64,000 nt of DNA from Alphaproteobacteria bacterium (GCA_963667785.2 CAXXMU010000001.1:384001-448000), one strand, 5' to 3'. Shown: positions 9,928 to 58,281, counted from the stretch's first letter. A program made the numbers and translations. The notes: a model not told the origin generated them from the letters alone.

Positions 9928-10084
9928 GGGTGCCGCGCAGCGCCGGGTCTGCTCCGCGTCTCTCGCCATCGTGACGAGTGGCGTCGCATTTTCCGTGGAT
10001 GAGGGGCGGGAACACGCCATATAGTCCGCCGAGCACACTCTGGAGCGGGGAGCGGCGGTCGCTGCCCGACGAACGGCGGGGACG

Positions 10085-19194: not shown

Positions 19195-21549
19195 GTGAAC
19201 GAGGCCGGCGAACCGGGGCACGAGGTCGAGGCGCTGCGCGAGCGTATCTCCGCGCTCAGCGCTGCGATCCTGCGCATCAGCGCGAGCCTCGACGTCACCA
19301 CCGTCCTGCAGGAGGCCGTCGACAGCGCCCGCGTGCTGACCGCCGCGCGCTACGGCATCATCACCACCATCGACGAGGCGGGCGAGGTGCGCGAGTTCGT
19401 CACCTCGGGCTTTACCCCCGAGGAGAAGCATCAGTTCGTCGACTGGCCGGACGGGCCGAAGCTGTTCGCGCATTTCCGCGACCTGCCCGGCCCTGTCCGA
19501 CTCACCGACCTCCCCGCCCTGGTCCGCTCCCTCGGCTTCTCCCCGGACCTGATGCGCTCCAGGACCTTCCAGGGCACGCCGATGCGCCACCGGGGTGTCC
19601 ATGTCGGCAACTTCTTCCTCGCCGAGAAGGAGGGAGCGCCGGCGTTCACGGACGAAGACGAGGAGATCCTGCTCCTGTTCGCAAGCCAGGCGGCGACCGC
19701 CATCGTCAACGCCCGAACCCACCGCGACGAGCAGCGGGCACGGGCCGACCTGGAGGCGCTCATCGAGACCTCGCCGTTCGGCGTCGTGGTGTTCGATGCC
19801 CGGAGCGGCCGGCCGGTTTCCGTCAACCGCGAGGCGCGGCGCATCACAGAAGGCCTGCGCACGGCCGGTCGCCCGACGGAGGCGCTGCTGGAGGTGGTCT
19901 CCGTCCGCCGCGCCGACGGCCGCGAGGTGTCGCTCGGCGAGTTCCCCATCGCGGAGCGGCTCAACATCGGCGAGACGGTGCGTGCCGAGGAGATCGTGCT
20001 CTCGGTGCCGGACGGGCGCAGCGTCCGCACGCTGATCAACGCGACTCCGATCCATTCCGCCGATGACGGCATCGCCTCGGTCGTGGTCACCATGCAGGAC
20101 CTGGCGCCGCTCGAGGAGCTGGAGCGGCTGCGCGCGGAGTTCCTCGGCCTGGTAAGCCACGAGCTGCGCGCCCCGCTGGCGTCCATCATGGGCTCGGCCG
20201 CCACGCTTCTGGAAGAGGCGGCGGACCTCGATCCGGCGGAGATGCACGAGTTCCACCGCATCATCCGTGAGCAGGCCGGGCACATGCGCGGCCTCATCGG
20301 CGCCCTGCTCGACGCCGGGCGCATCGAAGCGGGCACGCTCTCGGTCTTGCCGGAGCCCTCGGAGGTTGCCGCGCTGGTGGACCGTGCGCGGAACACCTTC
20401 CTTTCCGGCGGCGGCCGGCACACCCTGCACATCGACCTGCCGCAGGACCTTCCCCGGGTGATGGCCGACCGCCGGCGCATCGTGCAGGTTCTGAACAACC
20501 TTCTGTCCAACGCCGCGAGGCACTCGCCGGAGTCCTCCCCGATCCGGGTCTCGGCCGAGCGCGACGGCGTTCACGTCGCCGTGTCGGTTTCCGACGAGGG
20601 CCGGGGCGTCGCGCCCGAGCAGCTGCCGCACCTCTTCCGCAAGTATGCCGACTCCGGCGGCGGCGAGCGCGCGACCGCAGGAACCGGCCTCGGGCTCGTC
20701 ATCTGCAGGGGTCTGGTGGAGGCTCACGGAGGCCGCATCCGCGCCGAGAGCGGTGGCACCGGCCAGGGTAGCCGCTTCACCTTCACCCTGCCGGTGGTCG
20801 AAGACATGGGTGAGGGCGAAGCCCCCCGTTCCGGCCGCCGCTCCGCCGCTCCGACGTCCGATCGGCGCGAGCCCACCCGCATTCTGGTGGTGGACGACGA
20901 CCCGAAGACACTTCGCTACGTGCGCGACATCCTCAGCGAAGCGGGCTACCCCCCCCTCGTGACGGGCGACCACGCGGACCTCTCCCACATCATCCGGACC
21001 GAGAAGCCATCCCTCGTCCTGCTCGACCTCATGCTGCCCGGCACCGACGGGATCGCGCTGATGGAGAGCGTGCCGGAGCTTGCCGACCTGCCGGTCGTCT
21101 TCATCTCCGGCTACGGACGTGACGAGACCGTCGCGAGGGCGTTGAAGGCGGGCGCCGCCGACTACATCGTCAAGCCGTTCTCACCCACCGAGCTCATCGC
21201 CAGGGTGGAGGCGGCGCTCCGACGCGTCGCACGCCCCGAACCCTTCGCGCTCGGCGAGCTCGCCATCCACTACGAGTCGCACCGGGTCACGGTCGCCGGG
21301 CGCGAGGTTATGCTCACCGCGACGGAGTACGAGCTACTGCGCGTCCTCTCGCTCAACGCGGGACGGGTCGTTACCTACGAGGCGCTGCTGCGCCAGGTCT
21401 GGGGCGGCCGCGAGGCCGGCGACATGGATCTCATCCGCAACTTCATCAAGAAACTCCGGGCGAAGATCGGCGAGGACGCGGCGAACCCGACCTGGATATT
21501 CAACGTTCGCGGGGTCGGCTACCGCATGGCCAAACCGGGCGAGGGGTGA
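19195..21549 (+). CDS. Hybrid GAF-PAS-histidine kinase-receiver-OmpR-type DNA-binding protein
   Basis: GTG after AAGGAGGAGG; GAF (GNFFLAEK..FTDEDE), PAS, H-box SHELRAPL, N-box NLLSNA, G2 GTGLGL, REC (VVDDD, LLDLMLP, KPF), wHTH (LTATEYELL, NVRGVGY). Confidence 0.92.
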   Translation: MNEAGEPGHEVEALRERISALSAAILRISASLDVTTVLQEAVDSARVLTAARYGIITTIDEAGEVREFVTSGFTPEEKHQFVDWPDGPKLFAHFRDLPGPVRLTDLPALVRSLGFSPDLMRSRTFQGTPMRHRGVHVGNFFLAEKEGAPAFTDEDEEILLLFASQAATAIVNARTHRDEQRARADLEALIETSPFGVVVFDARSGRPVSVNREARRITEGLRTAGRPTEALLEVVSVRRADGREVSLGEFPIAERLNIGETVRAEEIVLSVPDGRSVRTLINATPIHSADDGIASVVVTMQDLAPLEELERLRAEFLGLVSHELRAPLASIMGSAATLLEEAADLDPAEMHEFHRIIREQAGHMRGLIGALLDAGRIEAGTLSVLPEPSEVAALVDRARNTFLSGGGRHTLHIDLPQDLPRVMADRRRIVQVLNNLLSNAARHSPESSPIRVSAERDGVHVAVSVSDEGRGVAPEQLPHLFRKYADSGGGERATAGTGLGLVICRGLVEAHGGRIRAESGGTGQGSRFTFTLPVVEDMGEGEAPRSGRRSAAPTSDRREPTRILVVDDDPKTLRYVRDILSEAGYPPLVTGDHADLSHIIRTEKPSLVLLDLMLPGTDGIALMESVPELADLPVVFISGYGRDETVARALKAGAADYIVKPFSPTELIARVEAALRRVARPEPFALGELAIHYESHRVTVAGREVMLTATEYELLRVLSLNAGRVVTYEALLRQVWGGREAGDMDLIRNFIKKLRAKIGEDAANPTWIFNVRGVGYRMAKPGEG

Positions 21550-21673: not shown

Positions 21674-24235
21674 CTAGAACCGCCGGCTGTAGCGCGCGAG
21701 GATCGAGACTTCCCGTTCGCCCGCCACGTGTCCCGCGTCGTGCGAGGCGACCGCGGCCATGTGCGCCCGGCCGCCCGCCCAGGGACGCGAGTACGCGACC
21801 TCGAGGTCGAGTTGGCGGCCGGAGGGCTCGAGCCTCAGATCCGCCCGCTCGATCTCGACCCCTCCGCCGGGGCTCCGCCCGGACACCCACCGCAGCGCCG
21901 CGCGCCCCGCCTCGACGCGCAGCGGCTGCGACAGCCGGAACGCCAGCCGGTCGCCGCTCCGCCCGATATCCCGGCCCACGGCGCCCACCGCGAAGGCGCC
22001 GCTCCAGAGTCCCGATACCCCCCGCACGATGCCCTGGCGCAGACTGTCCGTCCGGTGCGTGCCGGCATGCGCGCTCCCCAACAGCGTCCAGTCCCCGCCC
22101 AGACGACGGGACGCCGTGAGGCCCGCGAGGATCGTCCCCGTCCCGAGCTCGCCGAAGGCGCCCTCGGGCCGGCTCCCCACCGCCCCGTCCGCTTCCGACA
22201 TCCATCCCGCCTGCAGTGCGAGGCCCGAATCGGCGAGCCCGCCGAAGCGGTACTCGGTGAGGGCGCCCGCGATCCCGTCGCTGCGCGCATCGGGCTGGCC
22301 GCCGTCCGGCCCCGTGGCCGCGAACGCCGCGATCCGGAGCGAGCCGGTGCCCAGGGGCGACGCCAGGCCGAGGCTGGTCCCGTCGCGGGCGAAGCCGAGA
22401 TACGGATTGGCGAATGCGCCGGCGTCGGCGAACGTGCCCGGCGCGAGCTCTCCCGCTTCCGGGCCGAACCGCGAGGCCAGCCGGCTGCGGTATCCGAACT
22501 CAAGTTGGCGGCTGCCGAAGTCGTGCATGACCGACAGCGACGCGAGCGCGGCCAAGCCGTCACCGACATCGGCACCGTGCGCGGCCGGGACGACATCGAG
22601 GCGCACCTGCAAGTCGTGCCCGTCCACCTCCCACGGCGTCCCCCGGGGATCGCGCCCCAATGCTCTCAGGCGGTCTGCGAGCGAGGAGCCGGCGAACCCC
22701 GCCAGCCGAAGGTAGTCGTCGAGGCGGCGGAAGAACGGTGCATCGAGCTCGTCGAAGCTCGCCACGTGCGCCGAGGCGAGTCCGCGTGCGAGCGAGTCCC
22801 CGAAGGCCGGGCCCAGGTAGAGCGCGCTCTGCGCCTCCGGCGACGATGCGCCGGAGAGCGAGACGCCGGTCAGCATCCGCTGTCCCCCGACCGGCCGGGT
22901 GGCCGTATCGAGGTCCAGGAAGCCTTGGCCGTACACGTCGGCGTCCGCGTACACGCCCGTCCTGTCGGCAGTGGCGAGAATGCGCTCCACGATCTCGTCA
23001 TTGCCGAGCTGATTGCGAAAATGCTGGGCGAGAAGCCCGATCCCGCCCGTCACGAACGGTGCCGCCGACGAGGTGCCGGCCTCTTCGACCGTAATGAAAC
23101 ACTGCGATGCGCCGGCCTCGCAGTGGAACGCCGGTGCCGGACCCGTGATGTCCACGCCGGGTGCCGCCAGACAGAACGCCTTGGCGATCCCGCAGCGGTT
23201 GGAGAAGTCGGCGATCGTGCCATCCGGGTTCGTCGCCACGACCGCCAGCGAATGGCCCCGTAGCTCCGGGAGCCGCACCGAAAGCCCGGGCAGGGGCTCG
23301 ACCGAGCTCGCCGACACCGGCGACCCGTCCGGTCCGATCTCGCCGTGGGCGTTGCCGGCCGCCCAGACGTAGATCGTGCGCTCGGCGGCCGCGGCATCCG
23401 CCTGCGCCATCGCCGCGATGGCGTTGGGAAAGCGTTCCCGCAGCTCCTGTGCGTCGAAGTCCTCGATGTTGCCGGGAACGCCGAAGCTGCAGTTGACCGC
23501 CGTCACCCGGCCGTTCAGCCGGGAGAAGGCAATCCCGGTGTCCCGCTCCAGTTCCCTCTCGAGCTGCGCTTCGACATCGAGGACCCGCGCCTGGAGCTCC
23601 TCGATCTGCTCGGGCGTGGGGTTCTCCGGGTACTCCGCAACGATCTCGTCGATGACCTCCTCCAGGTCGCGCGATCCCACGCCCACCGATATGACCCTGG
23701 CGTCGAACGCGACCCCGTGAACGGGCGGCCCGCCTGCCGCGTCCGTCTCCGGAGTCTCCTGCCGTGCGGCGGCCATGATGCCCGCGACCAGCGTTCCATG
23801 TCCCAGCCCGCTGAAGCACGTGCCGTCGGGGCCGACCTCGTCGCAGGTGCCGAAGTCGGGGTCGTAGTCCCCGACGTAGCTCGCTTCGAGCTTGCCTTCG
23901 AACTTGGGGTGATCGGGATCGACCCCGGTGTCGACGATCCCGAGCGTCACGCCCTCGCCGGTCGCGCCGCGGGCGTAGGCGTAGTGCGCCTTGATCCGGG
24001 CGAGCCCATCCTGGTTGCGGAACTCCTCGTGGCTGGCGTACTCCCCGCGCCGTTGCTCTTCCGTCTCGGGATCGGGGGTTCCGTCGACTAGGCGCACCGT
24101 CGTGCTGGTACCGCAACCCGCGAGCGCCAGGGCGAGAATCAGGACGACGGCGGGGGCTCCCGCCGCTCGGGCCGCCGCCCGGCGGGCTCGCGGTTTCGAA
24201 GCCGTGTGTCGGGTCGCCCACCCCACGCGTGTCAT
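21674..24235 (-). CDS. S8 (subtilisin-like) serine peptidase, lipoprotein, with a C-terminal beta-barrel-like region
   Basis: Lipobox LALAGC; catalytic triad IVDTGV / HGTLVAG / GTSSAAP; VWAAGN; ends in alternating strands and terminal F. Confidence 0.88.
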   Translation of the reverse strand: MTRVGWATRHTASKPRARRAAARAAGAPAVVLILALALAGCGTSTTVRLVDGTPDPETEEQRRGEYASHEEFRNQDGLARIKAHYAYARGATGEGVTLGIVDTGVDPDHPKFEGKLEASYVGDYDPDFGTCDEVGPDGTCFSGLGHGTLVAGIMAAARQETPETDAAGGPPVHGVAFDARVISVGVGSRDLEEVIDEIVAEYPENPTPEQIEELQARVLDVEAQLERELERDTGIAFSRLNGRVTAVNCSFGVPGNIEDFDAQELRERFPNAIAAMAQADAAAAERTIYVWAAGNAHGEIGPDGSPVSASSVEPLPGLSVRLPELRGHSLAVVATNPDGTIADFSNRCGIAKAFCLAAPGVDITGPAPAFHCEAGASQCFITVEEAGTSSAAPFVTGGIGLLAQHFRNQLGNDEIVERILATADRTGVYADADVYGQGFLDLDTATRPVGGQRMLTGVSLSGASSPEAQSALYLGPAFGDSLARGLASAHVASFDELDAPFFRRLDDYLRLAGFAGSSLADRLRALGRDPRGTPWEVDGHDLQVRLDVVPAAHGADVGDGLAALASLSVMHDFGSRQLEFGYRSRLASRFGPEAGELAPGTFADAGAFANPYLGFARDGTSLGLASPLGTGSLRIAAFAATGPDGGQPDARSDGIAGALTEYRFGGLADSGLALQAGWMSEADGAVGSRPEGAFGELGTGTILAGLTASRRLGGDWTLLGSAHAGTHRTDSLRQGIVRGVSGLWSGAFAVGAVGRDIGRSGDRLAFRLSQPLRVEAGRAALRWVSGRSPGGGVEIERADLRLEPSGRQLDLEVAYSRPWAGGRAHMAAVASHDAGHVAGEREVSILARYSRRF

Positions 24236-24529
24236 CGGTTCCTTGCCCCTCGCCGTTTCGGAGTCAGTCCCGGACAATCCGTCGATGACCCACCCGCGCA
24301 GCGGTGTGCAGGAGCGTAGCCGCATACGGGGACAATAGGCGGAACAGTGTGAAAATTGTGTGCTATATCGACTAAAGTAAGTATCTTTTCCGTATATTTC
24401 ATCGGCTCCGGGTAAGCGGTAAGAGCGCACCACCCTCGACGTCAAGTCGGACTTGAGGTGGGCGTAGGGTGTTGTTAAGCGTGGAAAACTGACCCCCTAT
24501 TGGAGTGGGCCCCAGGGGCCCCCTCCAGT

Positions 24530-24660
24530 CTCGACGGTTGCGACGATCGCATCCTGTCGCTCTATGCGCGCGGCATGACGGTGCGCGAGATCCAGGGTCA
24601 CCTGCGGGAGCTCTACGGCGTCGCGGTCTCGCCTGACCTGATCAGCCGGGTGCCGAACGC
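24530..24660 (+). pseudogene. IS256-family transposase fragment
   Basis: DDRILSLYARGMTVREIQGHLRELYGVAVSPDLISRV is typical of IS256 transposases; no start, truncated. Confidence 0.8.
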
Positions 24661-24734
24661 GATTGTTACCTGCAACTCGCACGCACCGACGTGCGCGAAT
24701 GGATACGGCAGGCCTCGCCGGGTCGGCCCTCCTG

Positions 24735-24876
24735 CGCCGGCGGTGCGGCATCGCCACCAAGCACCTCGACAGCTATCTCAGGCGGTTCCATCTCATCGCT
24801 CTCGGCAATCCGCCCGCCGAGAGCGTGTCTCGAGGCGGCGATGACCAACCCAGGTCTACGTTTCGCAAACTGAGCC
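24735..24876 (+). pseudogene. IS1595-family transposase C-terminal remnant with possible right end
   Basis: RRRCGIATKHLDSYLRRFHL resembles the ISXO2-like C-terminus; ends in TTTCGCAAACTGAGCC followed by AT-rich TAATTTTT. Confidence 0.6.
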
Positions 24877-25239
24877 TAATTTTTGGCCAATTTCCCCAAA
24901 GTTGGGGACGCGAGAAAATCTGAAGTCTTCTAATACTTGTAATGACAGGGGCCCAGGCACTGCGCGGAACAATGTCTTGTCGTTTCCGCCGGGAGTTGAT
25001 GACAGCGAGTGTGCAAAGGAAGCCCATGAGGTGCGGCGTCGTCCCGGCCTTACGCGCCTACGTCGGAACCCGGCTGATGCGAAGAGCCGTCGAGGCGCCC
25101 GCACGGCGTGGCGCCGGACGCGATTCTTCCCGGCGACCCGCACGCGCTGTCGTGGGCGAACGGTTCCTGCAGGCCTTGCCGGGCCGGCTCTTCACCCATG
25201 CTGCCACCCCGGTCCCGGCTTCCGGAAAGGACGTGTGAA
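24861..25239 (+). repeat. About 380-bp leader, copy A (upstream of Cys-rich paralog 1)
   Basis: Aligns over its whole length to 27303-27681; its 3' ~143 bp recur at 25942-26084, and a partial copy lies at ~24670-24730. Confidence 0.88.
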
Positions 25240-25878
25240 ATGAAGACGCGACGATCGATTCTCGGCCTGTTGGCATTCGCAGCGATCATGGTCGTGGCGG
25301 GCGCAGCCCACGCTGACTGCTGGGGCGACAATAGAGTGACTTTTCATCATTCCGAGTGTCTGCACGGCTGGTGGGACAATAATGACTGGCCCAGAAAAAG
25401 TACTTTCGGAGCTCAAGTTCAAAACGATTGCCACCTATGGGGCACGGTGGTTGCTAAAGTTGACCTGGCGAGTTGCTCGGACAAGACGTGGCACCTCAAC
25501 AACACCAGTAAGAGAAGAGGCAGTGAAGCTTGTCGAGTCAACGGCATCCATTGCTGCAAAGATGTCGGAGACTTGTGCAACAAGAGCGATCTCGTGACCA
25601 TAGATGGGTGCACGAGCCAGTGGAACAGCAGTCCCGCAAGCGATACGTGCTACCTTTCAGGCGGTGAAACTACTGTGTTCGGCACGATAATGGGAACTGG
25701 TGTGCAATCCGTCACCGCGTCGAGCGCCAACTACACGTGCAGTTTCTGGGCCAAATGCCAGCAAATAGGACCCGACTGGACCCAGCAGGAAAACGCGACT
25801 TCGATCAAGGACGTGCACTGGCTCGATGCTGACGATGTGGTCAATTGCAATGGGGTGTTGAAGGAAGATTCGTGTTGA
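25240..25878 (+). CDS. Secreted cysteine-rich protein, paralog 1 (14 Cys)
   Basis: RBS GAAAGGA; Sec signal MKTRRSILGLLAFAAIMVVAGAAHA; homologous to the two downstream genes. Confidence 0.88.
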   Translation: MKTRRSILGLLAFAAIMVVAGAAHADCWGDNRVTFHHSECLHGWWDNNDWPRKSTFGAQVQNDCHLWGTVVAKVDLASCSDKTWHLNNTSKRRGSEACRVNGIHCCKDVGDLCNKSDLVTIDGCTSQWNSSPASDTCYLSGGETTVFGTIMGTGVQSVTASSANYTCSFWAKCQQIGPDWTQQENATSIKDVHWLDADDVVNCNGVLKEDSC

Positions 25879-25941
25879 AGCAAGGGTGAAGACCACGTGC
25901 CTGACGGAAGTTCGTTCCTGGCAGGCGGGGTGGGGAGGGGA

Positions 25942-26084
25942 GCCCGCACGACGTGGCGCCGGACGCGATTCTTCCCGGCGACCCGCACGCGCCGTCGTGG
26001 GCGAACGATCCCTGCAGGCCTTGCCGAGCCGGCGCTTGACCTATGCCGCCACCCCGGTCCCAGCTTCCGGAAAGGACGCGTGAC
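25942..26084 (+). repeat. Partial leader copy upstream of paralog 2
   Basis: Closely similar to 25097-25239. Confidence 0.85.
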
Positions 26085-26729
26085 ATGAAGATGCGACGAT
26101 CGATTCTCAGCCTGTTGGCATTCGCAGCGATCATGGTCGTTGCGGGCGCAGCCTACGCCTCCTGCACGGGCAGCAATAGAGTGAGTTTTCATCAGGCCGA
26201 GTGTCTGCATGGCTGGTGGGACAACAACCCATGGCCCGCGAAAAGCACCTTCGCAGTTCGAGTTAAAAACGATTGCCATCTATGGGGCACGGTGGTTGCC
26301 AAAATTGACCTGGCGAGTTGCTCGGACAAGACGTGGCACCTCAACGACACCAATAGGAGAAGGGGCAGTGAACGTTGTACAGTCAACGGCATCCATTGCT
26401 GCAAAGATGTTGGAGACTTGTGCAACAAGAGCGATCTCGTGACCATAGCGGGGTGCACGAGCCAATGGAACAGCAGCCCCGCAAGCGATACATGTGATCT
26501 CTCAGATGGGTCGACGTCGTCCGTCACTGCGGACACGGACGACCACACGTGCGATTTCTGGGCGAATTGCCAGTACACGGCGGACGACGGGACCACCCAG
26601 GAAAAAGCGACTTCGATCGGAGACGTGCACTGGCTCGATTCTGACAACCTGGTCAATTGCAATGGGGAGTTGAAGAAAAGTTACAATGATTGTACGTCAA
26701 CGGATGTAGTTCCGAATTGGCGACCATGA
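26085..26729 (+). CDS. Secreted cysteine-rich protein, paralog 2 (14 Cys)
   Basis: Signal peptide ending AAYA; long stretches identical to paralog 1 (NDCHLWGTVVAK, GIHCCKDVGDLCNKSDLVTI). Confidence 0.88.
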   Translation: MKMRRSILSLLAFAAIMVVAGAAYASCTGSNRVSFHQAECLHGWWDNNPWPAKSTFAVRVKNDCHLWGTVVAKIDLASCSDKTWHLNDTNRRRGSERCTVNGIHCCKDVGDLCNKSDLVTIAGCTSQWNSSPASDTCDLSDGSTSSVTADTDDHTCDFWANCQYTADDGTTQEKATSIGDVHWLDSDNLVNCNGELKKSYNDCTSTDVVPNWRP

Positions 26730-27302
26730 GAACCGCTTGCAAAACTCCCGGTCGCGATTGCCCATGAAGGTATCAATGCGAGAATTTGCCTAAGCTGCAA
26801 GCAAAACAGGGCGGAACTCTCTTCCGTCTCTCCAATGTCGAGAGCTGATCTGGCGACGGCGAGCCGATTCGACGGTGAGGGCCGTGTGCCAGGCGGATGA
26901 TGATGGCAACACCTTCATCGGGAAAGGAGCGACGCGCCATGGCAACCGAAAGTAGGATTCGCCGGAGGGGGGCCTGCGGGATTTCGCGGGATGGCGAGGG
27001 ATTCCGGCGGGACAGGCGGCCTTCATGTCCCACGCCGCCGCCGGCCTCCCCTCCCGCGCGCCGCTCCTTTCCGCTTGCCTGCGCCCTCGCCCATCATGCC
27101 GCCACTCTCGCACGACCGCCCCACGCTCTGCATCGCACCATGGTGCGGGGTATCCGGTCCTGTAAGCGCGCGCCAACCGACAAGAGGTCGGCCAAAGAGA
27201 GGGTCGGAAAGCAGGTCTGAAGCGCCCCCTGAATCAACCGCTCGATGTAGTCGCGGTCCTTGGGGGTCAATTTTCCATGCTTAACAACACACCACGCCTG
27301 AA

Positions 27303-27681
27303 TTTCGCAAAATGAGCCTAATTTTTTGACCAATTTCCCCAAAGTTGGGGACGCGAGAAAATCTGAAGTCTTCTAATACTTGTGCTGACAGGGGTCGAGG
27401 CACCGCGCGGAACGACGTCTTGTCGTTTCCGCTAGGAGCCGTTGACAGCGAGTGTGCAAAGGGAGCCCACGAGGTGCAGCGTCATCTCAGACTTACGCGC
27501 CTTTGTCGGAACCCGGTTGGCGCGACGAGCCGTCGGTGCGCGCACGACCTGAGTGCCGGATGCGACTCTTCCCTTCAACTTGCACGCATCGGCGTGGGCG
27601 AACGAACGCGGCAGGCCTCGCCGAGTCGGTCCGCCGGACACGTCGCTACCCTGTTCCCAGCGTCCAGAAAGGAAATGTGAA
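27303..27681 (+). repeat. About 380-bp leader, copy B (upstream of paralog 3)
   Basis: Homologous to 24861-25239, including the identical block CCAATTTCCCCAAAGTTGGGGACGCGAGAAAATCTGAAGTCTTCTAATACTTGT. Confidence 0.88.
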
Positions 27682-28290
27682 ATGAAAACGCGATACCCAA
27701 TTCTCGGCTTGCTGGCATTCGTATTGATCGTGGCCATTGCGGGCGCAGCCTACGCCTCGTGCACAGGCAGCAACAGGATCACTCGCAGCAACGCCGAGTG
27801 TCTTTCAGGCTGGTGGAACAACAAGAGTTGGCCAAGTAACTCGACCTTTGGCGCGCAGAATCTGTGCCCGGACTGGGGAAAGGTCGTCGCGAAAGTGGAC
27901 ATCAAAAACGCCGGCGACAGGACGTGGCATCTCGCCGACGGCGGCAAGAGGCGCGGCAGCACCTCAAGCACGGTCCGTGACATATACTGCTGCAAGGATC
28001 TCGGCGACAAGATGTGCAACAAGGCTGACAGGGTCTCGGTGGATAGTTGCAAGACGCAGTTCGAGAAAAGCGCTGCCGACGACGACTGCGATCTCGACGG
28101 CGATCCGACCCTCGATGGTACTTCGTCTTGCGTGTTCGATATGACGTGCAACTATACAGGAAATGGTGGGGTAAACTACGAGTACGAGGGCAAACTCGGT
28201 TTATCCTGGCACCGCGCCGATGAGATCGTATTCTGCGGTGAACACATCGGAATACAACCGAGGATGTGGTTGACCACCGGCAGTTGCTGA
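27682..28290 (+). CDS. Secreted cysteine-rich protein, paralog 3 (12 Cys)
   Basis: Signal peptide ending AAYA; ECLSGWWNN..WP..STFGA, WG.VVAKVD, TWHL, RRGS, CCKDLGD.MCNK shared with paralogs 1 and 2. Confidence 0.88.
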   Translation: MKTRYPILGLLAFVLIVAIAGAAYASCTGSNRITRSNAECLSGWWNNKSWPSNSTFGAQNLCPDWGKVVAKVDIKNAGDRTWHLADGGKRRGSTSSTVRDIYCCKDLGDKMCNKADRVSVDSCKTQFEKSAADDDCDLDGDPTLDGTSSCVFDMTCNYTGNGGVNYEYEGKLGLSWHRADEIVFCGEHIGIQPRMWLTTGSC

Positions 28291-28405
28291 GCGCCTGACG
28301 ATGGCCGATAGCGGCGCGGCGGCATTCGCTGTTCGGCGTCGGCCGTCGCAGGGCGTTTCGTCCAGGCGAATCGCTGTCCGGACCGGATCGGTCCGGTTGT
28401 GAACG

Positions 28406-29872
28406 ATGAGCGAAGACGAACGGCGCCTAGGGTCCTGGCAGGGTGCCATCCTCCCGATGCGGCCCTGCATGCCCGCGTTCGTGCTGCTGCTCCTCGTGCC
28501 GCTGTTGGTGGCCTCCTGGTTGCCGGCGTCTGGACAGGCGCAGGAGGACGGCGGAGGGGCGGCACTCGAGCTGACGCTGGACGACGCGATCCGGCTGGCG
28601 CTGCATAACAACCGGGACCTGCTGGATGCGCGCCTCTCCCGCACCAACCAGGAGTTCTCCCTGGATGTGGCCGAGGACCGATACCGGCCGACGGCCGCCT
28701 TCAGCCCGGTCGTGCGGGCGGCGCGGGAGCGGGACACGACGGCGGAGCTTGCCGCCGAGACGGGGCTTCGGATCGAGACCGGCGGGCAGTTCTCGTTGCG
28801 CTTCTCGGAGCCCGTTGCGGGCCCGGACGACGCCGACGGGAGAGTCTCGCTCAGCTTCTCGCAGCCGCTGCTGCGGGGCTTCGGGATCGACATCGATACC
28901 GCCCCGCTGCGCATCGCCCGCCTCGGCGACAGGATCAGCGTCCTGGCGTTCCGCGAGACCATCGCCGGCGTCGTGGTCTCCACCATCAATGCGTGGCGCA
29001 ACCTGGTGCGGGCCAGGCGGCAGCTGGAGATCGGCGAGGCCTCGCTGGTGCGCGCCCGCCAGCAGCTCGAGACCAACCGCACGCTGATCGAGGCAGGCCA
29101 GATGGCGGCGCGGGAGATTCTGCAGAGCGAGGCGGACGTCGCGGACCGTGAGCTTGGCCTGGTGCAGACGCGGAACGGCGTGACGACGGCCAACTTCGGA
29201 CTGATCGACATCCTCGATATCGACAGCGCGACGGTGGTCCGCCCGATGGAGTTGCCCGCCGCGCCGCGGCCAACGCTCTCGCTGGCCGACGCGATCGAGA
29301 CGGCGCTCCGACAGTCGCCCCGCTATGCGCGCGCGCTGCTGAACAGGGAGATCGCGGAGATCGACCTGGAGTTGGCCGAGGACAACCAGCTCTGGGATAT
29401 GTCGCTGGATGCCGACGTGTCTCGGGGCGTGGGCGGGGGTGCCGGGGAGACGCACTATTCCGCGGGCCTGCGTCTGACCATCCCGCTGTGGGACCGCGAG
29501 CCCGAGCTCGGTCTCAGAGCGGCGCAGGCCGGGGTCACGCAGGCCGAGCGCGGGCTGGTGGAGCTGCGCCAGTCGATGGACATCCAGGTGCGCCAGGCAG
29601 TGCACGACGTTGAGGTGGGACTCAGGCAGATCGAGCTCGCCCGGCAGGCGCTCAGACTATCGGAGGAGAAGCTCGCGATCGAGCAGAGCAAGCTGCAACA
29701 GGGCCTGTCCTCCATCTTCCAGCTCGCCCGCTTCGAGGATGACCTGGTGCGGGCGCAGAACGCCGAGGTGGACGCACTCGTCGACTACGAGAACGCGCTG
29801 ACGGCGCTGGACCAGACGCTGGGCACGACGCTCGAGACCTGGGGCATCGCGGTGGAGCAGGTGGGGCGATGA
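28406..29872 (+). CDS. TolC-family outer membrane channel
   Basis: LTLDDAIRLALHNN, FSQPLLRGFG, LTIPLWD, two OEP-like helical repeats. Confidence 0.9.
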   Translation: MSEDERRLGSWQGAILPMRPCMPAFVLLLLVPLLVASWLPASGQAQEDGGGAALELTLDDAIRLALHNNRDLLDARLSRTNQEFSLDVAEDRYRPTAAFSPVVRAARERDTTAELAAETGLRIETGGQFSLRFSEPVAGPDDADGRVSLSFSQPLLRGFGIDIDTAPLRIARLGDRISVLAFRETIAGVVVSTINAWRNLVRARRQLEIGEASLVRARQQLETNRTLIEAGQMAAREILQSEADVADRELGLVQTRNGVTTANFGLIDILDIDSATVVRPMELPAAPRPTLSLADAIETALRQSPRYARALLNREIAEIDLELAEDNQLWDMSLDADVSRGVGGGAGETHYSAGLRLTIPLWDREPELGLRAAQAGVTQAERGLVELRQSMDIQVRQAVHDVEVGLRQIELARQALRLSEEKLAIEQSKLQQGLSSIFQLARFEDDLVRAQNAEVDALVDYENALTALDQTLGTTLETWGIAVEQVGR

Positions 29873-31653
29873 CGGAGCCGCACACGGACGTCCACGGGCG
29901 CGTGCTGGAGAACCTGCTCGACGGGGTGATGGTGGTCGAGCTCGGCGGCACCATCGCGGTGTTCAATGCGGCGGCCGGCCGTATCCTGGGCATGGCGTCG
30001 GACGAGGTGCTTGGGAAGAGCTTCGCCGAGCTGTTCGTCCCGCACGAGGAGCTGGAAGAGTTCAGCGAGCTCGTGCTCGGCACCGTCGCGGGCGAAGGCG
30101 CGAGCGGCCGGCAGGTGGTGACGCTCGATCCCGGCGGCCAGCCGCGCTCGCTCTCGGTTGCGACCTCCTACATCAGGCAGACCGTCGACGGCGCGTCGGT
30201 GCCGATGGCGCTGGTCGCCGTCTTCAGCGACATCACCGAGCTCAGGGAGTTGCGCGAGACAGAGCTGCGCATGGCGAAGGAGGTGGAGGCGCAGCACACC
30301 GAGCTGCAGTCCGCCTACCGCCAGATCGAGGAGCGCAACGAGACCCTGGCCCGGATGCTGAAGAAGGTCCAGGTGGCGCGGATCATGGCGACGGTGTTGG
30401 TGATCGGCGTGTTCCTGGGGGCCGGCACCTACGTGTGGCAGCCGTTCGACCACGTCGATCTGCCGTTCATCGGCGACTCGTCGGGCTCGTCGATGATCGC
30501 CGAGGCCGGTGCCGATACCGAGAGCGGCCTCTACACCCTGACGGTGGAGCCCGAGCCGGTGCGCGAGACGATCTCGCTGTCTGGACGGCTCGAGCCGTGG
30601 CGGTCGGTCGCGGTGACGAGCCCGCTGGCGAGCCAGATCGCCGTCGTGCACTTCCGCCAGGGCCAGGAGGTGAAGGAGGGCGACCTTCTGATCGAGCTCA
30701 ACACGTCGGAGGCGGTCCGCCTGCACCGCGAGGCGCAGGTGAAGCACATCGAGGCGCTGAGAGCGTTCGAGACCGTCAGGGACTGGGAGAGCGGGTCCGA
30801 GATGGCCGAGGCCCGGCGCTCCTATGCGCGGGCGCGCATGGCGCTGGAGAGCCAGGAGAATCAGTTGAAGCGAGCCGCGTTTCTGCTGGAGCAGGGCCTG
30901 ATTCCCGCATCGGAGCACGAGGATGCGGAGCGCCAGTATCGGGGCCAGCTGCTGGACTTCGAGGCGGCCCAGGAGGATCTCGCCGCGGCGCGTGCCAGGG
31001 GCGGCGGGGAAGCGCTGGACAAGGCGGCGCTGGAGCTGAGGACCGCCGAGGAGGAGCTGCAGGAGCTGGCGCAGAGCCTGGGTCAGAGCCGCATCCATGC
31101 GCCGCTCTCGGGCGTCGTGCTGGCCCATTCCGGCACCTCGCGCCTGCAGGAAGGCAGGAACATCGGCAGGGGCGAGGTGCTGGCGACCATCGGCGACTTC
31201 AGCCGCATGGCGGCGACGGCCAAGGTCGACGAGGTGGACGTGGTGCGGATCGCGGTCGGCCAGCCAGTCTCGGTGACCGGCAATGCCTTCGGCGGCCTGC
31301 GCTTGCGGGGGACCGTGACCCACGTCGCTTCCCAGCCCGACCCCCGGTCGCGGGGCACGCCCCTGTTCGACGTGGCGGTGACGCTGGATCCGCTCGACGA
31401 GGAGCAAAAGGAGCGGATCCGCGCCGGCATGTCGAGCCGCCTCAGGATCGTCGTCTACAGCAAGGAGGCGGCGCTGATGGTGCCGCTCGAGGCGGTGGAG
31501 CAGCGGGGGCGCTCCTACTTGGTGAGCGTGGTCGACCCGTCGACCCGGGAGGTGGGCGAGCGGGAGGTGGTCATCGGACCGACCACCCAGGATTCGGTCG
31601 AGATCACGGCCGGGCTGCAGGCTGGCGACGAGATCGTGATTCGAGAACGATAA
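29869..31653 (+). CDS. Periplasmic adaptor (MFP/HlyD-like) with an N-terminal PAS domain
   Basis: PAS (VLENLLDGVMVV...FNAAAGRILG...VFSDITE), coiled coil, one TM, lipoyl hairpin (GQEVKEGDLL; IHAPLSGVV), GLQAGDEIV. Confidence 0.88.
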   Translation: MTEPHTDVHGRVLENLLDGVMVVELGGTIAVFNAAAGRILGMASDEVLGKSFAELFVPHEELEEFSELVLGTVAGEGASGRQVVTLDPGGQPRSLSVATSYIRQTVDGASVPMALVAVFSDITELRELRETELRMAKEVEAQHTELQSAYRQIEERNETLARMLKKVQVARIMATVLVIGVFLGAGTYVWQPFDHVDLPFIGDSSGSSMIAEAGADTESGLYTLTVEPEPVRETISLSGRLEPWRSVAVTSPLASQIAVVHFRQGQEVKEGDLLIELNTSEAVRLHREAQVKHIEALRAFETVRDWESGSEMAEARRSYARARMALESQENQLKRAAFLLEQGLIPASEHEDAERQYRGQLLDFEAAQEDLAAARARGGGEALDKAALELRTAEEELQELAQSLGQSRIHAPLSGVVLAHSGTSRLQEGRNIGRGEVLATIGDFSRMAATAKVDEVDVVRIAVGQPVSVTGNAFGGLRLRGTVTHVASQPDPRSRGTPLFDVAVTLDPLDEEQKERIRAGMSSRLRIVVYSKEAALMVPLEAVEQRGRSYLVSVVDPSTREVGEREVVIGPTTQDSVEITAGLQAGDEIVIRER

Positions 31654-31667
31654 CCATAAGCTTCGCA

Positions 31668-32360
<693 letters not shown>

Positions 32361-32366
32361 GGCGCC

Positions 32367-33578
32367 ATGCGGAGCGTGCGCACGGACCTGGCGTCCACGC
32401 TGCGAGAGGCGGTGCGCAGCCTCCTGGGCGCCAGGCTGCGCACGCTGCTGGGGCTGATCGGCATCATGATCGGCATCGCCTCGGTCATCACCATGATCTC
32501 GATCGGGGAGATCGCGAAGTCCCAGTCGCGCAAGGATTTCGAGGCGCTGGGAACGGATATCGTCACCATCAAGCCGCCGGATCACCTGATCGGCCGTCCC
32601 GGTCGCGCGACCATCGGGCTGGAGGACGCCCTCGCCTTGGCGGAAGTGCTGCCGTCCGTCTCCGAGGCGGCGCCCCGGATCGAGACGCAGGGCTCGTTCC
32701 GCTACGCCGGCAAGCGTGTCGGCGGCGGCTCGGTGCAGGGGGTCTCCGCCTCCTTCGCGGACGTGAACAAGCTGCAGATGGCCGAGGGGCGCTTCGTCTC
32801 GAACCTCGACCGGGGCCGCTACTTCGCGGTCGTCGGCGCGGACGTGGCGAACGCCATGCGCCGGCGCGGCGCCGGTACCCTGGTGGGCCAGACCATGGAG
32901 GTCGGCGAGCGCCTCTATACGGTGATCGGCGCGCTGGAGTCTGCGCCGGAGACCTACGCGCTGCCGTTCTCGGTGGACGCGAACCGCTCGATATTCGTGC
33001 CCATCACCACCGTTCGCCGCACCGAGCCCGAAGCGCAGATCGAGCTGATCGTCGCCCGCGCGGCGCCGGGCGTGCACTACGCCGATGCCACGCGCGACGT
33101 GCGGGCCTACTTCCACGAGCGCGCCAGGGGGCTCGAGCTCGAGGTCGTCAGCGCCGAGCAGCTCATCGAGCAGATGGAATCGCAGCTCGGGCTGATGACC
33201 CTGCTGCTGGCCGCGGTCGGCTGCGTCAGCCTCCTCGTCGGCGGCATCGGGGTGATGAACATCATGCTGATCTCGGTGGCGGAGCGGCGCCGCGAGATCG
33301 GCGTCCGCCGCGCGCTCGGCGCGAACCGCGGCGATATCCAGCGCCAGTTCCTGATCGAGGCCCTCATCCTGACCCTCAGCGGCGGCATCGCCGGGGTGAT
33401 CGTCGGCACCGGCGCCGCCTACGGGATCGCCCACATCTACGCGTGGGAGTTCTTCATCTCCCCGGCCTCGATCGTCGTCGGCGTCGGCGTGTCCACGGCG
33501 GTCGGCATCTTCTTCGGCTTCCAGCCCGCCTACCAGGCCTCGCGCCTCGACCCCATCGTCGCCCTGCAGGGGGAATAG
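32367..33578 (+). CDS. ABC permease (MacB/FtsX-type)
   Basis: GIMIGIASVI, LLVGGIGVMNIMLISVAERRREIGVRRALGA, ASRLDPIVAL. Confidence 0.95.
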   Translation: MRSVRTDLASTLREAVRSLLGARLRTLLGLIGIMIGIASVITMISIGEIAKSQSRKDFEALGTDIVTIKPPDHLIGRPGRATIGLEDALALAEVLPSVSEAAPRIETQGSFRYAGKRVGGGSVQGVSASFADVNKLQMAEGRFVSNLDRGRYFAVVGADVANAMRRRGAGTLVGQTMEVGERLYTVIGALESAPETYALPFSVDANRSIFVPITTVRRTEPEAQIELIVARAAPGVHYADATRDVRAYFHERARGLELEVVSAEQLIEQMESQLGLMTLLLAAVGCVSLLVGGIGVMNIMLISVAERRREIGVRRALGANRGDIQRQFLIEALILTLSGGIAGVIVGTGAAYGIAHIYAWEFFISPASIVVGVGVSTAVGIFFGFQPAYQASRLDPIVALQGE

Positions 33579-33602
33579 CGTGGCCGCACGCAACGAGGGG
33601 CG

Positions 33603-35192
33603 GTGACGCAGCCGGCTGCCCGCGCGGGCGACGCCATGACGGGCGCGCTCGGCCGCGTCCGCACCCTCGCCGCCCGGCCGGTCTGCGGCCAGTCGCTCGC
33701 CGTCTTCCGCATCGCCTTCGGCCTGCTGATGCTCAACGACGTCGTCCACCTGTTGAGGTACGACTGGCTCACGGGCTTCTACATCGACCGCGCCATCCTG
33801 TTTCCCTACTACGGGCTGGAGGTGCCGGCGCTGCCGGCGCCCTGGCTGCACCTGCTGTGGGGCCTCTGCGGGCTCTGCTGCGTGCTCACGGCGCTCGGCG
33901 CCTTCTACCGGATCGCGATCTGGGGCTTCAACGCGATCTTCATCTACTTCTTCCTGCTCGATCAGCTTCTCTACCTCAACCACTTCTACATGATCGCGCT
34001 CTTCGGGCTGCTGCTGGGCTGCACCGACGCGCATCGCTGCTGGTCGTTGGACCGCCGCCTCGGGCGCATCGGGGGTACAACGAGGGTGCCGCTCTGGAAC
34101 CTGCTCATCCTGCAGTTCCAGGTCGAGGTGATCCTCGTCTTCGCCGGCCTCGTGAAGATCGAGATCGACTGGCTGCGGGGCGAGCCGCTCAGGACCTGGA
34201 TGCTGGAGCGCCCCTGGTCGCCGCTCTCGACCCTCTTCGAGGTGCACTGGATCACGCTCGCGGCTCCCGTTCTGATCATCCTGCTCCACACCGTGGGCGC
34301 GCCGCTGCTGCTCTGGTCGAAGACCCGGCTCTGGGTGTTCCTGCTCTATTGCGCCTTCCACGTGACCAATGCCCACCTCTTCAACATCGGCGTCTTCCCG
34401 TGGATGACCGTCGCGGCCACGACGATCCTGTTCTCGCCCGCGTGGCCCACGATCCTCGTCGGGCGGATCGGCGCCGCCCTGACATGGCTGCGGCTGCCAC
34501 GGCCGCCCGTGCCGGCGTGGATCGGCCATGCGGCACGCATCGTCGGTGGCGGGCCGGCGGCGCGCGGGGGAGAGCGCGCCGCGTTCCGGCCCCTTCACCC
34601 GGCGGCGCTGGCCGCGCTCGTCCTCTACGCCCTGGTCCAGATCTGGCTGCCGGTCCGCGACACCCTCTTCGAGGGATACGTAGGATGGACCGAAGAGGGC
34701 CAGAAGTTCTCGTGGCGCATGATGCTCTACGTCCACGGCGCAGACGGTCGCCTCATCGCGGTCACGCCGGAGGACGAGGCCTGGGTCATCGACATGCAGG
34801 CGCACCTCGACCCCCTGCAGACCTGGATGGTGTTCGCCAAGCCCGAGATGCTGCTGCACTTCGTCCACATGATGAAGGCGCACTACGCGGAGACCGGCGT
34901 CGGCGATGTGAGAATCTACGCCGACGTCGTCAAGAACGTGAACGGCCAGCCCTATCGGCGACTGATCGACCCCGACGTGGACCTCGCCGCCGTCGACGGG
35001 ATCAACTGGTTCGGCGAGGACCCCTGGGTGCTCCGCCCCGCCCGGATGCAGGCCGCCGAAGGTTTGGCCCCCGACTGGTATCCGCCGATTACCGCCACCC
35101 GCCTCGGCGCCATGCTGGACGCGCTCGGCGCACCGGACCCTGCCGCCGAGGCCGAGGCCGAGGCCGCCCCCGCGCGCGCGGTGAAAGAGTAA
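33603..35192 (+). CDS. HTTM-domain, vitamin-K-dependent gamma-carboxylase-like membrane protein
   Basis: SLAVFRIAFG, YLNHFY, FAGLVKI..DWLRGEP, FHVTNAHLFNIGVFPW, WTEEGQKFSWRMM, NGQP..RLIDPDVDL. Confidence 0.88.
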   Translation: MTQPAARAGDAMTGALGRVRTLAARPVCGQSLAVFRIAFGLLMLNDVVHLLRYDWLTGFYIDRAILFPYYGLEVPALPAPWLHLLWGLCGLCCVLTALGAFYRIAIWGFNAIFIYFFLLDQLLYLNHFYMIALFGLLLGCTDAHRCWSLDRRLGRIGGTTRVPLWNLLILQFQVEVILVFAGLVKIEIDWLRGEPLRTWMLERPWSPLSTLFEVHWITLAAPVLIILLHTVGAPLLLWSKTRLWVFLLYCAFHVTNAHLFNIGVFPWMTVAATTILFSPAWPTILVGRIGAALTWLRLPRPPVPAWIGHAARIVGGGPAARGGERAAFRPLHPAALAALVLYALVQIWLPVRDTLFEGYVGWTEEGQKFSWRMMLYVHGADGRLIAVTPEDEAWVIDMQAHLDPLQTWMVFAKPEMLLHFVHMMKAHYAETGVGDVRIYADVVKNVNGQPYRRLIDPDVDLAAVDGINWFGEDPWVLRPARMQAAEGLAPDWYPPITATRLGAMLDALGAPDPAAEAEAEAAPARAVKE

Positions 35193-35198
35193 CGCGGG

Positions 35199-35609
35199 TC
35201 AGTTCCGAAACCGGGCCACGCCCTTCGCCAGCAGCGCTGCGCGCCGCAGCCGGCGCAGCCAGGGATAGACCGCACGCACCCGCGCGGGGCTCGACGCGAA
35301 CCAGCGCGCGAACGCGTTGAAGCGGCCGAGGCCAGCGCTCATCGCCTTGAGCGCGACCATCGCCGCGGCCCCGTGATAGCGCCGGCCGTCGAGTGCCAGG
35401 ATCATGCCCTGTTCGAGATCGAAGCCTTCGCGTCGCAGCCGGGCGACGAGGTCGGGCGCTTCCCTGCCGTCGATCAGGCGCAGGGGCTTGCCGATGCGGG
35501 CCTCGAACTGCGATTTCGCGACGTAGTAGCTGCAGAACGGGCATTCGCCGTCATAGAGCAGGAAGGGGTCCGGCGGGGAAGCAGTGGCGGTTTCGCCCGT
35601 TTCAGCCAT
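35199..35609 (-). CDS. DCC1-like thiol-disulfide oxidoreductase (DUF393)
   Basis: LLYDGECPFCSYY (DxxCxxC motif). Confidence 0.85.
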   Translation of the reverse strand: MAETGETATASPPDPFLLYDGECPFCSYYVAKSQFEARIGKPLRLIDGREAPDLVARLRREGFDLEQGMILALDGRRYHGAAAMVALKAMSAGLGRFNAFARWFASSPARVRAVYPWLRRLRRAALLAKGVARFRN

Positions 35610-35982
35610 GCGTCGGGTCACTCCGGCTTCAGCTCCCCATGTCAACCGAGAAACATTGGGTCAACCGCGCGTCGAGATCAATAGCCCGCCCTCAGCCAGG
35701 CAAGACCCCAATTGCACATGCAGTCGCAGTTTCCCATGAGACGCTGCAGTTGCAGTCTTTGCCGCCTGACAATGACTTGTCGCGCCCAAGCGCCCGCCCG
35801 CGGCGACGCGGGCCTAACCCCAATACTGTTCACTTAGGGCTATAGTCGCGGGCCTGTGAACGCAGCAGGGGTCAGGCGGATGTCACGGGCTGTTGGGATA
35901 TCAATCGGCATTGAAGAAGGCTCAATTCGCAAAACGTAGGCATAGTCTGGTCATCGCCGCTTTCTTGGTAGACGCTTGGCTG

Positions 35983-58280: not shown

Positions 58281-58281
58281 G

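Follow-up and report, generated by a model that had tools for sequence, protein, structure and literature searches.

What is the relationship between a MacB-type export pump and the three secreted cysteine-rich (Cys-rich) proteins that are encoded directly upstream of it? The question is raised by a gene cluster at positions 21674 to 35609 of a 64,000-nucleotide stretch of DNA from an Alphaproteobacteria bacterium (GCA_963667785.2, CAXXMU010000001.1:384001-448000), from now on referred to as the window. A preliminary description of this cluster had proposed one complete pathway in which the Cys-rich proteins are folded, modified, exported and possibly processed. We find that the window holds two components of separate origin that have been brought together: a five-gene operon (TolC, adaptor, ATPase, permease and HTTM) that is native to a high-GC (guanine-cytosine content) Rhodospirillaceae-like alphaproteobacterium, and three separately derived Cys-rich cassettes, inserted directly upstream of the operon together with debris of an IS256-type insertion sequence (IS). 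Based on gene content and gene neighborhood, an export link between the Cys-rich proteins and the pump is likely, and this is the part of the proposed pathway that stands; the rest of it is unsupported. The features of the cluster are as follows.

21674-24235, minus strand: S8 subtilase lipoprotein of 853 aa, counted from the likely ATG at 24235, in an open reading frame (ORF) that is open to 24445; Pfam Peptidase_S8, E 1.1e-34
24461-24497, no strand: left-hand inverted end of a remnant IS256-type element, a 37-nt inverted repeat with 27262-27298
24500-24844, plus strand: Mutator/IS256-family transposase gene fragment; Pfam Transposase_mut, E 2.8e-8, profile positions 104-143 of 379
24850-25239, plus strand: non-coding leader/promoter region of Cys-rich gene 1, conserved by sequence identity
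25240-25878, plus strand: Cys-rich secreted protein 1, 212 aa, 14 Cys, no Pfam match
26085-26729, plus strand: Cys-rich secreted protein 2, 214 aa, 14 Cys, no Pfam match
27262-27298, no strand: right inverted end of the IS256-type remnant, pairing with 24461-24497
27682-28290, plus strand: Cys-rich secreted protein 3, 202 aa, 12 Cys, without the variable Cys pair, no Pfam match
28378-28396, plus strand: perfect palindrome with 8-bp arms and a 3-nt loop, read from the sequence, ending 9 nt before the TolC start codon
28406-29872, plus strand: TolC-family outer-membrane duct, 488 aa; Pfam OEP in two stretches, E 1.1e-35
29869-31653, plus strand: periplasmic adaptor (membrane fusion protein) with PAS and HlyD parts, 594 aa; Pfam PAS, PAS_9 and PAS_4 plus HlyD_3 and HlyD_D23
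31668-32360, plus strand: ABC ATPase of the MacB/LolD class, 230 aa, a separate polypeptide; Pfam ABC_tran
32367-33578, plus strand: MacB-type permease, 403 aa; Pfam MacB_PCD, E 3.2e-34, and FtsX, E 4.5e-24
33603-35192, plus strand: enzyme with HTTM and VKGC lumenal domains, 529 aa; PF05090, E 2.9e-64, and PF22777, E 3.2e-31
35199-35609, minus strand: DCC1-like thiol-disulfide oxidoreductase, 136 aa; PF04134, E 1e-9, with a D-G-E-C-P-F-C motif

Gene calls were based on an ORF list, translations, codon-position GC and a Pfam scan, by which all genes named in the preliminary description were confirmed with their strands and coordinates. The gaps of -4 to 24 nt that it gave for the export block, running from TolC to HTTM, were likewise recovered, at -4, 14, 6 and 24 nt, the first value being the overlap of the tolC and adaptor genes by 4 nt. 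The DCC gene stands tail to tail with the HTTM gene, with 6 nt between them, and the S8 gene is divergent from the Cys-rich and pump genes. Promoter and terminator counts in a scan of 24200-36300 did not exceed those of shuffled sequence, so the scan is silent on co-transcription. The palindrome at 28378-28396, which sits at the junction of the cassettes and the pump operon and was not called a terminator by the consensus scan, may represent an operator or an RNA hairpin.

All three paralogs carry a hydrophobic N-terminal signal of the Sec type, in agreement with the preliminary description; the signal ends in A-x-A, and each protein has 12-14 Cys. The mature proteins are acidic and comprise 177-189 aa (19.4-20.8 kDa); mature paralog 1 has 187 aa, 20.6 kDa, 14 Cys and 5 Glu versus 18 Asp. 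Paralog 2 is 76% and paralog 3 48% identical to paralog 1, and the C domain diverges faster than the N domain, with identities of 82% (N) and 67% (C) between paralogs 1 and 2 (dN/dS 0.48 and 0.41, respectively) and of 58% (N) and 29% (C) between paralogs 1 and 3. Because the number of conserved Cys is even, disulfides rather than a lipoprotein Cys are expected, and the lipoprotein reading of the first Cys was rejected, the residue preceding it after A-x-A being Asp or Ser. Tat export was also considered and rejected: an R-R pair is present in the signal peptides of paralogs 1 and 2, but conservation across the family does not extend to the second Arg.

A word-indexed search returned 40 relatives among 112 candidates, almost all of them without a name, and a profile search of 1.84 billion representatives returned 328 clusters at E<=1e-3, 230 of them at E<=1e-10. 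A 27-member alignment contains 24 invariant columns, 12 of which are Cys, and one additional Cys pair is variable. No Pfam or NCBIfam model matches the family, a profile search of the PDB with the family alignment gave a best E of 0.013, to an unrelated protein, and no description of the family was found in the literature searched. An AlphaFold2 model of paralog 1 (mean predicted local distance difference test score 83.6, about 90 across the mature part) predicts two beta-rich domains; a Foldseek search of the PDB with this model gave nothing at E<=0.001 and a top query TM-score of 0.22. A cyanovirin-N (CVNH) lectin identity was indicated by a language-model lead of 0.76-0.78, below the tool's threshold of 0.9, and was ruled out, as none of the 27 members matched CVNH at Pfam E<=10 and Foldseek listed no CVNH entry. 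The Cys-rich proteins thus appear to constitute a sizeable unnamed family of predicted extracellular domains without a recognizable fold. The relatives found by the profile search include proteins made up solely of the N-terminal domain and others with N domains in tandem, and in 10 of the 20 longer relatives scanned a Calx-beta domain directly follows the Cys-rich domain. These fusions point to a possible extracellular binding or adhesion role.

The permease aligns to MacB residues 252-646 (NCBIfam, E 2.9e-58), has four hydrophobic regions and combines the MacB periplasmic core with an FtsX-type membrane domain, which places it in the MacB class. The best NCBIfam match of the ATPase is the N-terminal nucleotide-binding part of MacB (E 6.8e-75); the score stays under the equivalog cut-off, since the ATPase forms a polypeptide of its own here. 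The adaptor scores 134.9 bits against TIGR01730 (cut-off 94.9), and the TolC protein matches TIGR01844 at E 8e-24, under the cut-off. By gene content, the export block therefore qualifies as a MacB-type tripartite pump, predicted to transport a periplasmic substrate, as the preliminary description had proposed in calling it a MacAB-TolC-like exporter. The adaptor contains a PAS domain (residues 11-127), one transmembrane helix (166-190) and an HlyD part (245-520); with a single helix lying between them, the PAS domain is expected to be cytoplasmic and the HlyD part periplasmic. Among the 120 PAS-adaptor matches listed, the PAS family is present, in proteins of about 590 aa, in all but 4. In a plasmid collection, 5 HTTM records and 4 adaptor records were found, with no adaptor match covering the PAS part.

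Three precedents described in an excerpt of PMC5985334 bear on how such a pump could work. MacAB-TolC exports STII from the periplasm after Sec transport and DsbA oxidation, which supports a two-step export model; a MacB-based pump exports the 10-kDa dispersin; and DevB, an adaptor, controls its pump through a cytoplasmic N-terminus, which supports a gating role of the PAS domain. By analogy, the PAS domain on the adaptor suggests signal-gated export.

The window system resembles Escherichia coli MacAB-TolC with STII in its MacB-type permease (core domain plus FtsX), HlyD-type adaptor and TolC duct, and in a cargo that is Sec-dependent, forms periplasmic disulfides and is taken from the periplasm (for STII as given in the excerpt of PMC5985334, here predicted from the genes). 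It differs in that the ATPase is separate, the adaptor has a PAS part of some 160 residues on its cytoplasmic side, a VKGC-like enzyme closes the operon and the candidate cargo genes adjoin the pump. The cargo differs as well: STII is a small two-disulfide peptide, and the candidate cargo here would be a protein of about 20 kDa that forms 6-7 disulfides. The Aat (AatPABCD) and CexPABC systems, which export dispersin and CexE, are similar in that a MacB-based pump is dedicated to a single folded, Sec-dependent surface cargo that is encoded beside or near it; a modifying enzyme also belongs to the Aat system, as the preliminary description points out. In contrast to Aat, no Lnt-like acyltransferase (AatD) domain is found among the window genes, the accessory enzyme being HTTM/VKGC-like, and the candidate cargo belongs to an unrelated family and at 19-21 kDa is twice the size of dispersin (about 10 kDa).

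Scanning genomes with the Cys-rich family profile identified 10 loci in 6 genomes: three alphaproteobacterial metagenome-assembled genomes (L001 and L002; L004 and L005, on one contig; L009), two Candidatus Binatia genomes (L003; L006 and L007) and the cyanobacterium Aphanocapsa feldmannii (L008 and L010), described as an intracellular sponge symbiont (PMC6506613, excerpt). Locus contents were determined by tblastn with the window proteins and by Pfam scans of the locus ORFs.

L005: the window order, namely Cys-rich gene, TolC, PAS adaptor, ABC ATPase, MacB permease, HTTM and a convergent DCC gene, then DsbA/ScsC-type and double-STAS genes
L004: a second pump that lacks HTTM and has a PAS adaptor of 47% identity, followed by an FG-GAP/ASPIC/VCPO-like protein and two additional Cys-rich genes
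L009: a pump 66-83% identical to that of the window, divergent from three Cys-rich genes, with no HTTM or DCC gene up to a distance of 10 kb
L001: two Cys-rich genes, a LuxR-type regulator, TolC, ABC ATPase, DCC, DsbA/ScsC and STAS genes, with adaptor, permease and HTTM all missing
L002: close to a contig end, a Cys-rich gene that adjoins metabolic genes, with no linked pump
L003, L006, L007, L008 and L010: no pump, HTTM or DCC gene; transposases, recombinases and large adhesin-like genes

A pump of the PAS-adaptor family thus adjoins Cys-rich arrays in all three alphaproteobacterial genomes as well as in the window, in four arrangements (window, L005, L004 and L009) and in degraded form at L001; on the L004/L005 contig, the second pump lies 5 kb away. 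Two additional contigs, recognized by matches in exact size (173297 and 24648), appear to encode a Cys-rich protein together with a PAS adaptor and a close HTTM homologue. It should be noted that outside the fetched loci, same-contig calls rest on exactly equal contig sizes, a proxy that misses true cases such as the L009 adaptor.

Several side observations concern these loci. At L001 (3269-6080), TolC, ABC ATPase and DCC genes have been kept while adaptor, permease and HTTM are gone, a sign that the pump decays in some lineages; two fused metagenomic ORFs (P0209 and P0219, described below) are further signs of this. In the cyanobacterium, L010 holds a Cys-rich copy with in-frame stop codons (9800-10110) and L008 an N-domain-only form (3811-4209).

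We propose the following sequence of events. The Cys-rich proteins would cross the inner membrane via Sec, the A-x-A signal peptide would be cleaved and six or seven disulfides would form in the periplasm. The MacB pump would then take the proteins from the periplasm, through TolC, to the surface or the medium, as MacAB-TolC does with STII, and through the PAS domain, gating of the pump would respond to a cytoplasmic signal. Once outside, the Cys-rich proteins would probably serve as binding or adhesion modules, since longer relatives carry Calx-beta repeats. Based on gene content and neighborhood, we assign this joint reading (Sec transport with periplasmic oxidation, MacB-type export, PAS gating and extracellular binding modules) a probability of roughly 0.45. 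Should the pump indeed export proteins of 20 kDa, the size range known for cargo of MacB pumps would double and a further two-step secretion route of Gram-negative bacteria would be added. A family that is mobile, occurs in three phyla including a sponge symbiont and is found fused to Calx-beta fits a host- or matrix-binding factor.

The composition of the Cys-rich genes bears on how they came to lie beside the pump. The window has a GC of 0.65 overall and of about 0.70 in the 2-kb bins flanking the low-GC Cys-rich block, in which GC is 54-57% and third-codon-position GC (GC3) 0.64-0.72; the pump genes have 68-70% GC and a GC3 of 0.91-0.95. In every host, the Cys-rich genes are lower in GC (0.47-0.58) and GC3 (0.49-0.79) than their neighbors (GC3 0.76-0.95). 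The 37-nt inverted ends at 24461-24497 and 27262-27298 are 89% complementary, lie 2.8 kb apart and enclose paralogs 1 and 2 and the transposase fragment, of which just about 40 residues match the profile. A 29-nt core of the inverted ends is present at those two sites only, with 0 chance matches in 100 shuffles. Inverted ends and transposase fragment look like a decayed insertion sequence, or like two solo ends, that was involved in cassette duplication. Transposase remnants occur at the cassettes both in the window and in related loci.

The non-coding leaders of the Cys-rich genes (24850-25239, 25939-26084 and 27292-27681) are 77-92% identical within the window over about 150-390 repeated nt. 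The leader at 24850-25239 is 81% identical to 27303-27681, 92% to 25939-26083 and 82-97% to L001 716-948, and the segment upstream of the L001 gene (704-948) is 81-97% identical to the regions upstream of paralogs 1 and 3. Leader conservation is about equal to or above that of the coding sequence, and the leader may represent a common promoter or regulatory element; a search of 24200-28500 against Rfam at E<=0.1 gave no match, leader region included. Downstream of paralog 2, a region is 78-87% identical to both flanks of the L002 gene. Despite these conserved cassette flanks, the TolC proteins of the window and L001 are just 48% identical. The GC contrast, conserved flanks and divergent TolC proteins therefore indicate that the cassettes travel independently of the pump. 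Together with the occurrence of the family in three phyla (Alphaproteobacteria, Binatia and a cyanobacterium), they mark the Cys-rich cassettes as foreign to their hosts and as moving horizontally. Their repeated position beside alphaproteobacterial pumps reflects either selection for linkage or a common permissive site.

A protein of about 1250 aa adjoins Cys-rich genes in 3 of the 10 loci (L003 5870-9793; L004 5469-9161, 1230 aa; L009 11408-15247). It contains FG-GAP, UnbV/ASPIC, InlB-B-repeat-like and vanadium-chloroperoxidase-like (VCPO) helical-bundle domains. Its Binatia and alphaproteobacterial versions are 67% identical, which suggests that it travels with the cassettes. Neither this gene nor the DsbA/ScsC gene was found in the window by tblastn, and for the double-STAS gene, tblastn of the window gave just a weak single-STAS match at 17959-18291.

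The mobility of the cassettes leads directly to the most serious alternative, namely that the adjacency has no transport meaning. Mobile cassettes would have entered a permissive intergenic site, the Cys-rich proteins would stay periplasmic or exit otherwise, and the operon of PAS adaptor, MacB, TolC and HTTM would handle another substrate, be it a peptide, a lipid or a quinone-dependent product of HTTM. We regard this as possible though on balance unlikely, and the following points that weigh against export are to be read in its light. The cassettes move independently of the pump, IS remnants are present at the insertion and a permissive site alone might be enough for mobile cassettes to build up there. 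A linked pump was found at none of the five non-alphaproteobacterial loci (two Binatia genomes and one cyanobacterium) nor at L002, which limits the earlier claim of a link between exporter and Cys-rich genes to the Alphaproteobacteria, where it holds in three of three genomes. The Binatia chromosome of L003 has a PAS adaptor more than 10 kb from the Cys-rich genes (equal size 4774547). The three alphaproteobacterial genomes are related, so that their linkage does not amount to three independent events. The pump and HTTM families are larger than the set of Cys-rich matches and lie mostly on other contigs: the PAS-adaptor family comprises at least 259 clusters (90% identity) at E<=1e-10, and only 2 of the 120 PAS-adaptor matches listed appear to be co-located on a contig with any of the 40 Cys-rich matches. 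Given this large family and the few common contigs, the pump family is not dedicated to Cys-rich cargo. The main argument against export is size, as the mature proteins, with 19-21 kDa and 12-14 Cys, are about twice the largest folded MacB cargo known; set against this objection, each domain of the structural model would measure about 10 kDa.

Three points argue against a merely permissive site. Linkage survives rearrangement in all four alphaproteobacterial genomes with context, the window counted. It is true of two paralogous pumps on one contig. Finally, by a rough estimate that assumes genomes of several Mb with 1-3 pumps each, about 1% of random loci would have a pump at a distance of 10 kb or less.

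The last gene of the export block encodes a protein that matches human GGCX chains (E 3e-41, residues 18-476). Its HTTM part is followed by a VKGC lumenal domain, the full-length architecture of a vitamin-K-dependent gamma-carboxylase-like enzyme. Residues N126, H127 and K185, counted by hand along the alignment, align with N159, H160 and K218 of human GGCX, which we take to be catalytic, and are invariant in 40 HTTM homologues. What differs from human GGCX is that no Glu-rich carboxylation substrate or propeptide is evident here, and the 27-member alignment of the Cys-rich family contains no invariant Glu. Since paralog 1 is in addition poor in Glu, a Gla-type modification of a conserved site is not indicated, and the gamma-carboxylation of Cys-rich proteins proposed in the preliminary description finds no support, although the enzyme may act on other substrates. 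MloH, a bacterial homologue, has been described to carboxylate Asp in malonomycin biosynthesis (bioRxiv 10.64898/2026.08.19.745780, excerpt).

Among the 120 HTTM homologues listed, 39 are at least 60% identical and the others at most 49%. For 12 of the 39 close homologues, the contig matches that of a PAS-adaptor homologue in exact size (6 on contigs of 33 kb or less), compared with 0 of the 81 distant ones listed, which serve as the control for coincidence of equal contig size. In two metagenomic ORFs (P0209 and P0219), fusions were found of ABC_tran with a truncated HTTM (second half) and of a truncated HTTM with OEP. These fusions and the 12/39 versus 0/81 contrast imply that this HTTM subfamily belongs with the PAS-adaptor pump family. 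HTTM accompanies two of the five pump copies beside Cys-rich genes and is absent at L009, at the second pump of L004 and at L001; among the 6 related genomes, a linked HTTM gene is present in 1 and a linked DCC gene in 2. Co-conservation of HTTM consequently holds with respect to the pump family but not with respect to the Cys-rich genes. No description of HTTM in a MacB pump operon was found in the literature searched, and this operon type looks new. As a recurrent last gene of a pump operon, HTTM would provide a concrete setting for bacterial VKGC homologues.

The DCC protein has an N-terminal D-x-x-C-x-x-C in a thioredoxin-like domain of about 110 residues, as is characteristic of its class. 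With the DCC genes of L001 and L004 it shares 71-73% identity, and D20, C23 and C26 are invariant in the three orthologues. No signal peptide, transmembrane helix or other hydrophobic segment is present, so the protein is expected to be cytoplasmic and unable to contact periplasmic cargo. A DsbA/ScsC-type oxidoreductase gene follows DCC in L001, which keeps DCC without HTTM, and on the L004/L005 contig. DCC adjoins HTTM in the window, on the L004/L005 contig and on a Paracoccus albus plasmid (L011, NZ_CP115776.1 6378-21712), where it is annotated as DUF393. A natural HTTM-DCC1 fusion protein has been reported from another bacterium (bioRxiv 10.64898/2026.08.19.745780, excerpt). In contrast to the window, neither the Paracoccus pair nor the fusion is accompanied by a pump or Cys-rich gene. 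With a pair that lacks a pump and a reported fusion, DCC is best seen as a general partner of HTTM and not, as the preliminary description had it, as part of a maturation system specific to this cluster. On a Chondrinema plasmid, HTTM is found in an imelysin/di-haem/TonB cluster with no DCC gene. Gene content and neighborhood point to HTTM and DCC as an optional accessory redox or modification module of a subset of the pumps.

A bolder version, to which we give a low probability, would make HTTM and DCC a built-in accessory of widespread PAS-gated MacB pumps that carries out a quinone- and O2-dependent modification (Asp/Glu carboxylation or another base-driven reaction) before export of the proteins of about 20 kDa. 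If true, this would be the first bacterial protein modification of the vitamin-K-carboxylase type that is coupled to secretion. The cargo would then be multi-disulfide host-interaction proteins, twice the accepted size limit of MacB cargo, that spread horizontally among symbionts of three phyla.

The S8 protein has a lipobox-like L-A-G-C after a hydrophobic stretch and a C-terminus ending in RYSRRF. It matches the EprS autotransporter model weakly, over residues 59-182 only (79 bits versus a cut-off of 1700), and contains no Pfam autotransporter domain; its PDB relatives cover the protease part only. Using tblastn, no homologue was found in any of the 10 related loci. Its assignment as the processing enzyme was therefore rejected, and the gene appears to be an unrelated neighbor. 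As a side observation, a small S8 peptidase gene and alpha/beta hydrolase genes lie within about 5 kb of the HTTM/DUF393 pair of the Paracoccus plasmid, and the window cluster is likewise flanked by an S8 gene and an alpha/beta hydrolase gene (36267-37226), which may be coincidence.

The full pathway, in which HTTM modifies the Cys-rich proteins, DCC aids folding, the pump exports and S8 processes at the surface, draws on the place of HTTM at the end of the pump operon, separated from the permease gene by 24 nt, on its same position at L005/L004 and on its GGCX-aligned residues being kept. SdpB is an HTTM-family protein that is not known to have the VKGC lumenal domain. A precedent is found in Bacillus subtilis, where the multi-pass SdpB is needed to process and mature the Sec-secreted precursor SdpC of 203 aa (PMC6818787, excerpt), similar in length to the proteins here at about 200 aa, and where the product is handled by YknWXYZ, a MacB-like ABC pump with an adaptor (PMC4887032, excerpt). 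There, however, pump and sdp genes are unlinked, and SDP is a 42-aa hydrophobic peptide, whereas well-folded two-domain proteins are predicted here. Set against the pathway as a whole are the absence of HTTM from three of the five pump copies near Cys-rich genes and from all five non-alphaproteobacterial loci, the lack of an invariant Glu in 27 members with only 5 Glu in mature paralog 1, a cytoplasmic DCC that is likewise paired with HTTM in places lacking both pump and Cys-rich gene, and an S8 homologue in 0 of 10 loci. These make it improbable.

Just as doubtful is a reading of the Cys-rich proteins as diversified bacteriocin-like antibacterial toxins, for which a MacB pump would provide release and self-protection as such pumps do for several peptide toxins, since tandem paralogs in which the N domain is conserved and the C domain variable, horizontal spread of the family and sub-threshold similarity of ATPase and adaptor to bacteriocin and darobactin export components (NCBIfam) are met by the lack of an evident immunity-like small gene in the array, a dN/dS of 0.4-0.5 that gives no indication of positive selection, Calx-beta fusions that point to adhesion or binding and the absence of similarity to toxin families in Pfam, NCBIfam and the PDB.

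Apart from the cluster, the window contains a lower-GC island (40056-63998) with three IS1595-family transposase genes (40944-41891, 47707-48645 and 53669-54682) and the following defence genes.

40056-40940: type II DNA methyltransferase
41990-43210: PDC-S01
55340-56563: methyl-directed restriction enzyme of the AspBHI/Mrr type
56568-58535: NERD and UvrD helicase
58282-60123: DISARM-type DrmB
60113-63316: DISARM-type DrmA

Two kinds of genes near the cluster recur at related loci. A GAF-PAS hybrid histidine kinase/response regulator (window 19015-21549) is 65% identical over residues 70-199 to L009 1-571, and STAS-domain proteins are found near alphaproteobacterial pump/Cys-rich clusters in the window (17950-18288), L009 (15325-16014), L001 (6840-8084) and L004 (12513-13235). 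The hybrid kinase and the STAS proteins are possible regulators.

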